Position numbers and translations under genes: made by a program
Assembly (NCBI GenBank): GCA_964016885.1
Contig: OZ024741.1
Span: 160,642,001 to 160,706,000, forward strand
Length of the DNA stretch: 64,000 bases
DNA from: Eledone cirrhosa
Lineage: Eukaryota
Direction: 5' to 3'
Notes under the pieces: model-generated
Databases searched by the model: none
What the model saw: only the letters and a program-made list of their open reading frames with translations
Told to the model about the DNA's origin: nothing
Part shown: positions 32,158 through 48,319 of the stretch, one piece after another
Position numbering within the stretch: the first letter of the stretch is position 1
Layout of the letters: each line of letters starts with the position of its first letter

Positions 32158-32254
32158 ATGAAGATAGCCCTGATATTTTTAGTTCTGCTGCCTATTGTAC
32201 TGTCTGCCAGTATCGGAACAGAATTCGACGATGAAATTAATAAGAAAAGCCTTC
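32158..32254 (+). CDS. Secreted Cys-rich prepropeptide gene A, coding exon 1 (signal peptide + acidic pro-piece)
   Basis: MKIALIFLVLLPIVLSASIGTEFDDEINKKSL, phase-1 donor c|GTAAGT; acceptor tgtag at 32144-32148 just upstream; homologous to 48319-48229. Confidence 0.85.
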
Positions 32255-32444
32255 GTAAGTTGTTGTTGTTACTACTACTACTACTACTGATGATGATGAT
32301 GCTTTGAGTCGACCTGAAATTATGGATAAGTGTTTTTACCATAATTTCAGGTCGACCCAAACCTTCTGAAATGTTGTAGAATGTATTGTATATCACACTG
32401 TATGATGTTGGTTCTGTCTGGGAATTATAATAAATGTATATATG

Positions 32445-32848
32445 TAGGAATTGCAGCCAAGAGAAGAAGTTGGACGCATTCGATTCCAGGTGTCTGCGAA
32501 AGATCCTGGGGATTAAATGGAGTGACCGTGTAACAAACCAGGAAGTCAGGAACCGCACTAGCAGCTAGTCTCTTCTACCATCTGCAAGCGACGCCTGGGC
32601 TGGTTTGGACACGCTTTGAGACTTCCCCCGGAGAGACTGGCGAACCAAGTACTTAAATGGAACCCGCAAGGAAGCAGACGGAGAGGGCGACCCAAAATGA
32701 ACTGGCGCCAGACAGTTGAGAGGGACCTGCGAGCGACAAACAGACAATGGCGGAACGCTGTGCAACTGGCTGCTGACCGAACGCGATGGAACACTATAAT
32801 TGCCTCATGCGTCGCAAGACGCGGGAGCTTCTGAGTCTGAGTCTGAGT
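32445..32848 (+). mobile_element. RTE-like LINE 3' fragment in gene A intron 1
   Basis: KLDAFDSRCLRKILGIKW, WNPQGSRRRGRPKMNW; (CTGAGT)3 tail. Confidence 0.8.
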
Positions 32849-33199
32849 AGGAATTGACGATAAGTGTCTTGGTTGTTCAATCAATTGATCAGCTTGCTTA
32901 TGAAATTAACGTATAAGTGATTGAGCATTCTAGATACACATGTACCCTTAACGTAATTCTCGGGGAGATTCAGTGAGACTCACCAAGCAACGTGGCTTTG
33001 AGTTACAAATACAGCCCACCCGACAGACTTCCAAACAGTTTCCATCTACCTAATTTCCATCGCAAGGTATCAACTTGTGACTATGGTAAATAACACTTGA
33101 CCCAGATATCACTAAGTGGGATGCAACCTCGGATCTAATAATTACGAAGTGAACTTCTTAACTAGTCAGTCATGCGGTGTTTATACGTGTAGAATGATG

Positions 33200-34660
33200 T
33201 CACGTGGCTTACTGGTTAGGGTGTTTAATTCACGACTGCAAGGTCATGACTTCGATTCCTGGACCAGGCGGCACGTTGTGTCCTTAAGCAAGGCATTTTA
33301 TTTCACACTGCTCCAGTTCAAAAATGAGTGGTACCAGTAATTCAGAAGGCCAGCGTTGTCACATATTGTGTAAAGCTGAAACTGCCCGAAAATTATGTTA
33401 AAAGTATGTGTCGGTGGCATGTTCAACCACTTGCACGTTAATTTCATAAGCGGGTAGTTGTGTTGATTGAATCAACTGGAACATTTATAGTTGGAAACGA
33501 GGGAGATTCAACAACAGAATATTATAGAATACACGTCCACTTACATGAGCAATTAATCCAGTTGAGTGAATAGATGAGTGTTTGACGTCGAAACCCACGT
33601 TGATCGATCTTTGCCTATTTACAGCTATCATCTAATAATTATTTCTAGCTTAGGCACAAAGCCGTTAATTTGAGAGGGCGGGGCAAATTCGATTATGCCA
33701 GCTCCAGTACTTTATTGGTACTTATTTTATGGATCTCGGAAAGATGAAAGGTAAAGTTGACTTCGGGAGAATTTGAACTCAAAACGTTAAAAGTCGTAAC
33801 TAAATACCGCAAAGCATTTTATCTGATGGTCTAACGATTCTGCCAATCCACTGCCATTAAAAATGATTTCTGATTTAGGCACAAGACCAGCAATTTGAGA
33901 GAAAGGTGGGGAAAGTCAGTTATACCAACCTTAGTATTTTACAATCACTTTATTTTATGGACTTCGGAAGAATGAAATGCAAAGTTGACCTCGGAAGGAT
34001 TTGAACTCAGAACGTAGAACATTGTAACTAAATACCACAAAGCATATGGTCCGATGGGCTTTTGATACTGCCAATCCACCGCCCATTTAATAACACATAG
34101 AGCTGTGGAACAAAGTGACAGTATAAGAAGTGGGTATATTGTAGTTCTATCGATTTACTATTGCAAACACCGACCACTACTTCTTTCCTTGAATTCTATA
34201 TATCATAAATCGATCTTATCTCATAAATTCAATAGCTTGTGTCTATTGTTTGTTGATGAAGGCACATGACGTAGTGCTTAGAATGCTGGACTCGTTATCG
34301 TAAGGTTGTGTCCTTGAACAAGACATTTTATTTCATGTTGCTCTAATCTACTCAGCTGGAAAAAAATTAATTGCAGTATCACTGGTACTAAGCTGTATCG
34401 GTTTTCGACTTTCCTCGGACAACATCATATGTATATATCGTGTATATATATATATATTGTGTACTGCGATGACTCAAACAAGTGCCAAGCTGTATTGGTC
34501 TTGGCCTTTACCTTGGATAACATCGCTCATGGAGAAGGGAGACTGAAATGCATAGGTGACTGCTAATCTTCCATATAACATACAGCCCAGGCTTGTGACT
34601 CGGAGAGGTAAACCCATAATCAGTCAAGAGTGCATAACCCATGACCAGTCAGTATTAAAC
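33200..34660. mobile_element. Cluster of old SINEs (+ 33200-33520, - 33640-34085 tandem, + 34260-34660)
   Basis: tRNA boxes and core motifs shared with the other SINE copies. Confidence 0.65.
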
Positions 34661-34727
34661 CTTTCTTTTTCCTTTTATTTTAAATTGTTTATTTATTTAT
34701 TTTTATTTCTTCTTTTTTTTCTTGCAG

Positions 34728-45515: not shown

Positions 45516-45540
45516 CTATTTGCCAGTTTGTTGCAGCAAG
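45516..45540 (-). CDS. Gene B terminal coding exon
   Basis: Acceptor tttttctctatttttcag|; (I)LLQQTGK*; AATAAA (minus) at 45462-45467. Confidence 0.8.
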
Positions 45541-47278
45541 CTGAAAAATAGAGAAAAATCATTATAGAAAAATAATCTTAATAGTAATTTAAAATTTAAC
45601 TCTTTCTAACGAAAAACATTACCCCTGATTTCCAAATAATTTTGAAAATAATCAAGATTTTGAGGAGAATTAATAATAAAACTAATTTTCTCATTATTAA
45701 GTTGGTGTTTGGATATAACTTAAAGGTTATTATATAAAATGATGATGAAAGGTAAAGGGGGTGAAATTTATGTTTTTCCTGTTGTATTTGGTGTTTTTTT
45801 AATGAATATGTCCTTCAAAACTGTTTGAAATTATTAATCAACAAATTGGATGTTATGCATTTGTATTTCTAGCATGATTTAAACTTCTCTGTAATAACAA
45901 TAGATCCTAATTTTTGTAATTTTTCATTTAAATATTCATTTGTTGGATTTTTTCCCCACACCCTAATAGAATGGTTGACCCCAATTGTGTTTTTCTTTTT
46001 TACTCATCACACACTTTAGAATAAGGAAAAATCTGATGACTCATAAACACTCTTCAAAAAAAGTATTTATACATATTAGCATAACATGAACCCATAATTC
46101 CTGTAGTAACATTTTAAACTTGGTGGAGCTCATCTTCTCTCCTGGTAAGAACACATCTGATTTTTTTCCAGGAGAAAAAGAGAGGGAGAAGGTGTTATAG
46201 AGGTAAAATCGACCCCAGTACTAGACTGGTACTTTTTTTTATTGGTCTCAAAAGGATGAAGGCAAAGTTGACCTTGGTGAGATTTGAACTCAAAGCACAG
46301 AGAGCCAGAACAAATACCACAAAGCATTTTCTCCTTGAGTTTATGGCAGAAATACAGATAATTAAAAATACAGAAAAAATATTTTATTTCCTTTTTTAGT
46401 CAATAAATGCGGCAAAGTTATCAATGATAATCATACACTTGGTGCTTTTTAGACAATGATTTTCTTCTTTGACAGTTATATATGAGCTTTATTACGAATT
46501 TCAATTTGTATTTTTCTCATTTTGAAATAGAATTTGCTCTTTTGCAGTGCACCTATTTAGTTTGGCTCTGCCATGTTCGGACACATTGCACCTGTCATGT
46601 GGATCATGTGATTCTTTTCTGTATATAGTGTACATGATGTATTTATAAGTAATAGATCAAATACAAGAAGAAATCCTGATTAGATCTGACAACACTCGAG
46701 GTACATCTATCAATACACCAGTATTCCAAGATGCACTTAATTACATCTCACAGTGCACTAGTGTTGCTGAGGTGCACCTAATTTTTAAATTCAGCGAATG
46801 CACCTGCAGGCTAAGGTGCACAGTTTGGGAACTGCTGATCTTGGCAAACCTATTTGACATTTTGTCTGCCAAGACTTAAACATGATATTGATTAAGTAAG
46901 TCATACTAACACTTTCGCAGCCATATTTCTAATAAAATACTCTCCATTTCAATTAAATAAGGAAACATTTTAAGGGAATTACTAAAATTATTAAAGATTT
47001 AGTTACTAAGATAATAACTTAACATATGATTCTTATATAAAAGGATGTGGAAAATGTTTTATTTAAATAGGAACCCTTTTAAATGTGTGGTTTTATTCCA
47101 TAAAGCCAAAGACACTTTTTGGTGGGCTTGTATTAAAAGGGTTAATAAAGTTTAACTATCAAAGACTTTTTTCAGCAGCTTAATCTCATAAACATTGAGC
47201 CTTCTTCCCTCACCCCTCCCTCCTATCATCTAGCATAATGAATGAATAACTAAAATTTAAGAAACAATGACAACTTAC

Positions 47279-47393
47279 ATTTGACATGCAGATGAGCACA
47301 TAAACTGCCAGAAACCATCAACATTGTCTTTGCAAGCTGCTACACAACCACCAGATAAATCCAGTTGTTGGAGACGTAAAATCAAATCATCAA
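47279..47393 (-). CDS. Gene B coding exon 2 (mature peptide core)
   Basis: ctttcag| ... |GTAAGT; 115 nt, phase 1/2; (I)DDLILRLQQLDLSGGCVAACKDNVDGFWQFMCSSACQ(I). Confidence 0.9.
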
Positions 47394-48228
47394 CTGAAAG
47401 AGATTAGGAACAAAAATAGTGTTGTGTGTGTGTGTGTGTATAAAGGGTTCAAAGTTAAAATGACTGAAAAGTTTTCTCACATCTTTGTTTCACAGGGTTT
47501 TTATGGCTAAACACCCTTTGTAACGTCAACCACTTTGAACTTTGGTACTAACACTAGTTAGTCCTTGATCTGACAAGTGTCCTCATAACCCTTTGTTTGG
47601 CATGGTTTCTATGGCCGGATGCCCTTCAGCCAACCACTTTACAGAATGTACATTTGAAGGATTTCCACTTGCAATAATGTACAAAATGTCTTGAACATAT
47701 TTCACTTGCTATTTGAGAATGTTCATGATCTATTTTTTTAGGCCAATTACTTCCCATAAGAGGTCATCCTGCTGGGGAAGAGGTAGTGTCACCATGGTTT
47801 TGGTGACAGGTGGGATGGAATTTGAACTCAGAACCCACAGAACCACAACAGATACTGCAAAGCATCTCATTTGACTCTTTAACGATTCTGCTAAATCTAC
47901 CATATCAGGATTGGTACTTGATTCTATCAAGACAAAGTTGACCTTGACAGGATTGGAACTCAGAGCACTAAGTGCTAGAACAAATAGTGAAGTATATAAT
48001 TTTATGATCTGACAACTCAGCCAATTCCTTGCAATAATGAGATGAGAGGGGTCAGTTGATTATATCAACCCCTGTGTTTGACTGGTAGTCAGAAAGATGA
48101 AAGGCAATGTTGACCTCAGCAGAGTACAGAGAGCTGGAAGAAATACCAAGACATTTAATTTGACACTCTAATGAAACTGCCAAATCACCTCCTATGTTTT
48201 TGAAAGATTGTATACTTGGAACACTTAC

Positions 48229-48319
48229 TTGAGAATTTCTTGTCTATGTCATCACCATTTTGGAAACTGGCACACAGCACCAATGGCACAAGAGCCAACA
48301 GGAAAAGTACAAGCTTCAT
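48229..48319 (-). CDS. Secreted Cys-rich prepropeptide gene B, coding exon 1
   Basis: aaccATG; MKLVLFLLALVPLVLCASFQNGDDIDKKFS; phase-1 donor a|GTAAGT. Confidence 0.88.

Follow-up and report, generated by a model that had tools for sequence, protein, structure and literature searches.

A 64,000-nucleotide (nt) stretch of the Eledone cirrhosa genome (assembly GCA_964016885.1, contig OZ024741.1, positions 160,642,001 to 160,706,000 of the forward strand; "the window" throughout, numbered from its first letter) raises the question of whether two small genes predicted within it, A and B, are real, to which family their secreted four-cysteine peptides belong, and what these peptides do. Both gene models are real and intact, with exon junctions predicted from the sequence. 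Their products carry a known cysteine motif in a new setting, and the family is wider and older than the original prediction, made from the letters of the window, had it.

Gene structure and selection

The features of the two genes are as follows:

32149..32157, + strand: gene A, predicted 5' untranslated piece, 3' of a predicted splice acceptor (acceptor 9 nt before the ATG)
32158..32254, + strand: gene A, coding exon 1; predicted 17-residue signal, acidic pro-piece, Lys-Lys and first mature residues; phase-1 donor
34728..34842, + strand: gene A, coding exon 2, 115 nt; predicted amphipathic helix and C-x3-C-x11-C-x3-C hairpin (34775-34837); phase-2 donor
37437..37473, + strand: gene A, coding exon 3 including stop, without an amidation signal
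37529..37534, + strand: gene A, first AATAAA (second at 37584-37589)
48320..48334, - strand: gene B, predicted 5' untranslated piece, 3' of a predicted splice acceptor
48229..48319, - strand: gene B, coding exon 1; predicted signal, acidic pro-piece and Lys-Lys site; phase-1 donor
47279..47393, - strand: gene B, coding exon 2, 115 nt; predicted amphipathic helix and four-cysteine hairpin (47346-47284); phase-2 donor
45516..45540, - strand: gene B, coding exon 3 including stop; Gly-Lys end, a predicted amidation signal
45462..45467, - strand: gene B, AATAAA

The coding exons of gene A are 97, 115 and 37 nt in length (83 codons including the stop) and those of gene B 91, 115 and 25 nt (77 codons including the stop), with introns of 2473 and 2594 nt in gene A and of 835 and 1738 nt in gene B. 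Intron phases are 1 and 2 in both genes, all four donors are GT and all four acceptors are pyrimidine-AG. AATAAA follows the stop codon of gene A by 56 and 111 nt and that of gene B by 49 nt. The genes are convergent, lying tail to tail with approximately 8 kb between them. The six exons of a spliced, convergent pair of paralogues, with their phases, GT-AG sites, 115-nt middle exon and downstream AATAAA, thus stand as originally described.

Genes A and B are identical at 21 of the 37 whole-codon residues of exon 2, or at 22 of 39 when split codons are included, which reproduces the earlier count. A tblastn search inside the window matches the two genes in exon 2 at E 9e-12 and in exon 1 at E 4e-4, and the next best match is no better than 0.18. 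The introns had been called dissimilar, and they share only four short pieces of 32-88 nt; no similarity was observed between the flanks in 1 kb upstream or 300 nt downstream. In exon 2 the proportion of differing synonymous sites (pS) is 0.83 and that of replacement sites (pN) 0.26 (Fisher p 1.1e-6): synonymous sites are saturated and replacement sites are not. Exon 2 is under purifying selection, as the original prediction had argued for the coding exons, and genes A and B are old duplicates retained by selection.

The gene models are independently supported, because database orthologues match them exon by exon. Gene A shares 28 of 37 exon-2 residues with both Octopus bimaculoides A0A0L8GWF6 (P0009) and Octopus vulgaris CAI9736015 (P0024); 6 of 11 exon-3 residues match P0009, and across the two proteins the tail matches at 5-6 of 11. 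Gene B shares 24-27 of 37 exon-2 residues with A0A0L8FGZ6 and CAI9736016/17, and matches P0002 at 21 of 30 residues in exon 1, 27 of 37 in exon 2 and 4 of 7 in exon 3.

A splice acceptor is situated 1-15 nt upstream of the ATG in all six genomic copies of the family (two of which, the pair on C1 described below, are not independent of each other), compared to 10% of 29,072 background ATGs. The acceptor of gene A is the weakest of the six (9/15 pyrimidines). Because an acceptor stands just before all six start codons, a non-coding 5' exon, unlocated here and absent from the original prediction, is predicted upstream of them.

Copies in the genome

Six exon-2 sites at four loci recur across searches of this genome: A and B in the window; a copy on C2, at a distance of 136 Mb; two copies on C1, separated by 30 kb; and one on the unplaced C745. 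Each of the six has a 115-nt exon 2 and a matching signal exon; the exon 3 assignment of the C745 copy is uncertain. The second C1 copy (L006 / L020-L021; G000:C1, about 353.50-353.51 Mb) is probably a pseudogene, because its exon-2 donor is non-canonical and the dibasic site is missing. The exon 2 sequences of the C1 pair have six non-synonymous and no synonymous differences; positive selection between them was considered and rejected as not significant (p 0.34). Among the 15 exon-2 pairs of genomic copies, which are not independent of one another, pS is greater than pN in 14 (12 at p<0.05). Five further queries of this genome yielded no new exon-2 site and no additional copy was found across 732,648 flanking bases, copy counts being lower bounds; two weak extra matches were judged not to be family members.

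Family members elsewhere and age of the family

A full HMMER profile search of 1.84 billion representative proteins (E<=0.001) produced 20 matches, 19 of which have the family layout; the other, P0013 (an axolotl retrotransposon-gag repeat), was dropped as false. Organism assignment covers 10 of the 16 new matches, among which the bivalve proteins have E values of 2e-7 to 1e-4. Family members are found in O. bimaculoides, O. vulgaris, Argonauta, Magallana gigas, Pinctada imbricata, Pinctada fucata and Solemya velum. Word-based searches had recovered seven proteins from octopods only, a restriction overturned by the full scan. The peptides had been called lineage-specific, a claim that falls with these matches: because homologues occur in Magallana, Pinctada and Solemya, the family is, by sequence homology, older than cephalopod venom and reaches bivalves. 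The suggested cephalopod origin of the window can be narrowed to octopods, the closest named relatives of A and B being Octopus and Argonauta proteins. No named squid, cuttlefish or gastropod member is among the HMMER matches, and no search was aimed at those groups. All named members are uncharacterised in databases.

The bivalve-type proteins share with the octopod ones a 17-residue leader with proline, a basic site, the first helix and the hairpin. When scored with a mature-only octopod profile, each of ten bivalve-type peptides exceeds all 300 cysteine-fixed shuffles, a test that is not independent since these peptides were chosen by a related profile. P0012 and P0014, whose similarity ends partway through the mature region, and P0016, a chimeric model, were excluded from alignments. 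Trees are mostly unresolved, with P0009 and P0024 as the single supported pair (99/97), and orthology assignments rest on identity, tails and this pair.

Copy numbers are six here, six named in O. bimaculoides, four in O. vulgaris and two clusters in oyster. The O. vulgaris orthologue accessions CAI9736015-17 run consecutively, so the A-B neighbourhood is probably conserved in that species. Two Logan proteins, P0011 and P0025, are encoded as complete frames by contigs of 1127 and 1214 nt, and they probably derive from spliced RNAs because the genomic copies here hold kilobase introns. P0007, P0008 and P0011 stop one or two residues past the end of exon 2, as expected if translation ran on into intron 2 and soon reached a stop codon, and P0025 is P0011 with a normal tail; these endings could reflect gaps in annotation or a genuine short form. 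A chimeric P. imbricata model contains two tandem units, each ending two residues past Cys4, a break point that would correspond to the position of octopod intron 2.

Peptide anatomy and predicted fold

The layout first noted in A and B (signal, acidic pro-piece, basic site and four cysteines) proved to be family-wide. The predicted precursor consists of a 17-residue signal, an acidic pro-piece of 11-13 residues that would be cut off after a basic pair, and, in genes A and B (76-82 residues), one hairpin module. A 17-residue hydrophobic leader is present in 23 of 23 proteins by inspection of sequence. The basic pair is Lys-Lys in A, B and the Argonauta protein and Lys-Arg in the other 12 of 13 octopod-type database proteins, including P0009 and P0024 at the position of the Lys-Lys of gene A.

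Predicted mature regions are 41-61 residues in length (52 in A and 48 in B before trimming), and 21 of 23 contain four cysteines. Exactly 18 residues precede Cys1 in all 13 octopod-type proteins, and the cysteine spacing is 3/11/3 in these and in A and B, and 3/10-12/3 in the bivalve-type. Only the four cysteines, one alanine, the signal and the hydrophobic pattern are conserved across classes. No hairpin column has a conserved lysine (13 sequences), with 0-2 basic residues per hairpin. Twenty of the 23 mature regions have a negative net charge (A and B are each -2), one is neutral and two, of the Solemya type, are positive; histidines are frequent. The Solemya protein and a close relative (P0019, P0020) are histidine-rich as well as being the sole net-positive members. 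Solemya harbours gill symbionts. Gene B ends in Gly-Lys, P0001-P0003 end in Gly, and oyster members end in one or the other; this predicted amidation signal is missing from A and many other members.

Helix 1 is amphipathic, with a hydrophobic moment of 0.45-0.80. An AlphaFold2 model of the P0002 mature region has helices at residues 3-11, 19-26 and 29-46 (predicted local distance difference test [pLDDT] 71, predicted template modelling score [pTM] 0.41). P0023 is a variant with six cysteines, the two additional ones lying in helix 1 and at the C-terminus; these would fit helix 1 packed on helix 3.

Identity searches

The earlier statement that the peptides belong to no recognised family holds: no Pfam family exceeds its cut-off for family members and no characterised match was obtained. 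PDB sequence searches gave nothing significant, the hairpin profile having no match at E<=10 and the full family profile having Jug r 2.0101 (E 0.41) and an Ara h 1 fragment (E 0.87) as its best rows, both cysteine-driven and not significant. Foldseek found no matches in the PDB, a viral structure comparison none at E<=0.001, and an Atlas search with the mature region no usable match. The best Z in a structure comparison (VIA) was 4.7 among 48,161 chains, to generic small helical domains. No solved structure was found for the family.

Several candidate identities were rejected. Eclosion hormone was the sole hormone lead (Atlas score 0.78), and none of 21 members matches PF04736 at E<=10. This genome has an eclosion-hormone-like gene, L024 (G000:C14:41656871-41656969, - strand), with a signal and six cysteines in one open frame; it passes the PF04736 cut-off and is scored below zero by the family profile. 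Saposin-like proteins have a six-cysteine pattern, and a saposin identity has no support, with four cysteines here and no saposin family in the Pfam rows for 21 members. A Pleurocidin row (E 0.031) aligns to the signal only, and the UniRef label "Conotoxin" on the oyster protein P0027 is unsupported, one of 21 members matching PF02950 (E 0.19).

No paper naming the family or any of nine octopod accessions was found, in a search that did not cover the bivalve literature. No match carried a "novel peptide" class name, the comparison with those classes being by name only.

A salivary gland proteomic match

Almeida et al. 2020 (PMC7693380) analyzed posterior salivary glands of three O. vulgaris using six-frame entries from cephalopod gland transcriptomes. 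Group 23 of the 1868 groups in their Table S1 comprises A0A0L8GWF6, the O. bimaculoides orthologue of gene A, and an open reading frame (ORF) from a contig of a sequencing run. The entry lists a single unique peptide, two spectra, 23.5% coverage and a Q-value of 0. The sole tryptic peptide of matching size in A0A0L8GWF6 is residues 51-69, spanning Cys2-Cys4, and these residues are identical in the O. vulgaris protein; the peptide was assigned by size and coverage, its letters not being taken from PMC7693380. O. vulgaris probably produces the gene A orthologue as a protein in this gland, on a one-peptide identification from whole tissue rather than milked saliva. The salivary part of the earlier suggestion of a salivary/venom or defence peptide gains a footing from this detection, which leaves the choice between venom and defence to be weighed below.

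Five other family accessions, which are other-species sequences, were not found in the searchable part of the same supplement. Text searches of supplements covered PMC6425005, PMC10138644, PMC10142993, PMC12607849 and PMC7656900. Skin mucus and ink proteome supplements gave no family match in the parts searched, the query set being without A0A0L8GWF6, and family motifs were not found in the searchable part of the molluscan neuropeptide survey supplements (PMC6425005).

Function

We tentatively favour, at slightly less than an even chance, the reading that A, B and their relatives are old molluscan host-defence peptides, a family that grew in octopods and occurs in the venom gland. The 17-residue signal would be removed from the precursor and the acidic pro-piece cut off after Lys-Lys (Lys-Arg in most members); the gene B peptide would lose its terminal Lys and then be amidated. 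Cys1-Cys4 and Cys2-Cys3 disulfides, the pairing of the helix-hairpin toxins, would hold helices 2 and 3 together, while the first helix, being amphipathic, would pack on these or bind lipid. The mature peptide would act in glands and epithelia, on the membranes or surfaces of microbes, and since the peptides are acidic and often contain histidines, this action may be pH- or metal-dependent. The octopod expansion would have occurred through duplication and loss. Anionic helical antimicrobial peptides are known in invertebrates (PMC11767717). What suggests host defence is the repeated duplication and loss, a fold pattern kept over a surface motif, and the amphipathic first helix: the cross-class conservation appears to fit a conserved amphipathic fold better than a receptor-binding motif. 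Bivalves are not known to have a venom gland, and because they carry the family its ancestral role was not venom.

Several points weigh against a defence role. Most antimicrobial peptides are cationic, and 20 of 23 mature regions here are net negative. The sole tissue evidence comes from the venom gland, which would fit venom equally, and the strong purifying selection and invariant 18-residue spacing before Cys1 would also fit a receptor ligand. The AlphaFold2 model is middling by both its pLDDT and its pTM. Lys-Lys is a poorer convertase site than Lys-Arg, so the processing of A and B is less sure. The role is proposed mainly from sequence and predicted fold.

We consider it rather unlikely that octopods recruited the family into venom, with the salivary peptides targeting membranes or channels of prey, as toxins or in support of toxins, and an older role persisting in bivalves. 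Such recruitment would account for the gene A orthologue in the gland proteome, grouped with a gland-transcriptome ORF, and for the expansion to four to six copies in octopods with a probably conserved A-B cluster; it is compatible with a defence origin, and in old lineages purifying selection does not rule out a venom role (PMC4619613). Scorpion and cone-snail potassium-channel blockers have the same cysteine motif (PMC7191063), and Koch et al. (10.64898/2026.02.02.703354) describe 27 salivary superfamilies of unknown function. However, the gland identification is one peptide with two spectra from whole gland, the supplement part searched lacks the five other accessions, the hairpin has 0-2 basic residues and no conserved lysine, and homologues occur in non-venomous bivalves.

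Signalling, by a hormone, neuropeptide, cytokine-like factor or water-borne pheromone that undergoes regulated secretion and is read by a receptor, is unlikely. The signal sequence and dibasic site, the amidation signal that B shares with its Octopus relatives and with oyster members, the tight constraint (pS above pN in nearly all exon-2 pairs) and the deep conservation across Mollusca all suit it, and small, acidic helical peptides with disulfide bonds serve as pheromones in Aplysia and ciliates. Yet eclosion hormone, the only hormone lead, failed, no surface motif is shared across classes, A and many members lack the amidation signal, and the neuropeptide survey supplements (PMC6425005, searchable part) did not contain the family motifs. 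We regard as very unlikely a non-toxic secretion component, namely a lipid-binding, mucus, digestive-helper or protease-inhibiting peptide. Amidation and the removal of a pro-piece are seen more often in bioactive peptides, and the hairpin loop has no conserved basic residue, although the amphipathic helices are acidic, some plant hairpins with the same motif inhibit trypsin (PMC7191063), and the gland is rich in serine proteases (PMC7656900 supplement).

A bolder form of the host-defence reading is that the family is an undescribed mollusc-wide class of acidic three-helix defence peptides that pre-dates the split of bivalves and cephalopods and was expanded and recruited into venom in octopods. 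We find this doubtful; if true, it would allow the descent of a cephalopod toxin family to be traced back to an ancestral immune peptide, and would add a new disulfide-stapled scaffold. Few cephalopod venom or antimicrobial peptides have been characterised, and the accessible part of a 2025 review (PMC11767717) has almost no cysteine-rich defence peptides of cephalopods. The present family, unnamed in databases, spans octopus, argonaut, oyster, pearl oyster and Solemya and is tied to tissue by one detection. At about 45-55 residues, its peptides are easy to make. Two questions thereby become testable: the role of an old, overlooked molluscan effector, which is relevant to oyster immunity, and whether octopods turned the family into venom.

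Other features of the window

Just downstream of gene A, a dispersed repeat of approximately 200 nt is present in three tandem copies (37881-38501). A tandem 6.1-kb duplication (9733-21937), 98.9% identical, contains a non-long-terminal-repeat (non-LTR) retrotransposon with frames of 718 and 1161 amino acids (endonuclease, reverse transcriptase [RT], zf-RVT) and looks like either a recently active element or an assembly duplication. At 56157-59225 and 61009-62769 (- strand), non-LTR retrotransposon frames encode RT with a PHD finger behind it, the first also with an endonuclease domain. A 271-amino acid open frame at 1417-2232 (- strand), with a weak match to BACK (BTB-kelch; E 2e-4), may represent a host-gene exon.

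Comparison with known systems

Eclosion hormone (PF04736) resembles the family in having two C-x3-C motifs on a helical peptide and in the weak Atlas score, but it has six cysteines rather than four, is represented in this genome by a separate single-exon gene, and gives no profile match. Six conserved cysteines are required in that hormone (PMC6660194). The mytilins, myticins, mytimycins, myticusins, myticalins, molluscidins and octominins are, like this family, small secreted multi-copy molluscan peptides (PMC11767717 section 4.7). In the mussel cysteine-rich families, however, the order is signal, mature region and C-terminal extension (PMC11767717), whereas here the pro-piece is N-terminal and the mature region C-terminal; the accessible part of section 4.7 describes no molluscan antimicrobial family with this layout.

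The 3/11/3 cysteine spacing is, we assume, that of the conotoxins flf14/vil14a. The C-x3-C-xn-C-x3-C motif is that of alpha-hairpinins, kappa-hefutoxins, OmTx1-3 and the conotoxins flf14a-c and vil14a (PMC7191063), and the helix-hairpin toxins among these are secreted from a precursor and have a helix hairpin such as is predicted here with middling confidence. They are 22-27 residues in length (PMC7191063), in contrast to the 41-61 residues and extra N-terminal amphipathic helix found here, and the present family is mostly acidic and lacks the conserved lysine of their lysine and aromatic dyad. Because of this acidity and missing lysine, the sequences indicate that the family does not consist of kappa-hefutoxin-type blockers. 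Plant alpha-hairpinins and vicilin-buried peptides share the cysteine motif and supply the best, non-significant PDB rows of the family profile; their precursors are multi-module or vicilin-linked (PMC7191063), unlike the single module behind a short acidic pro-piece seen here. The link to kappa-hefutoxins and alpha-hairpinins drawn in the original prediction therefore reduces to cysteine spacing, with no significant match.

Koch et al. (10.64898/2026.02.02.703354) report 44 cephalopod salivary superfamilies, including the 27 of unknown function. These are short secreted salivary proteins, multi-copy in octopods as the present family is; the family's products are predicted to be secreted, and the gene A orthologue is probably present in gland tissue. 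Membership in such a superfamily calls for a signal sequence and for a level over 1000 TPM in a salivary gland or clustering with a transcript of that level. Their SF1 consists of other peptides and is confined to octopodiforms, whereas this family reaches bivalves. The family motifs do not appear in the accessible main text of Koch et al., whose File S1 may already contain this family.

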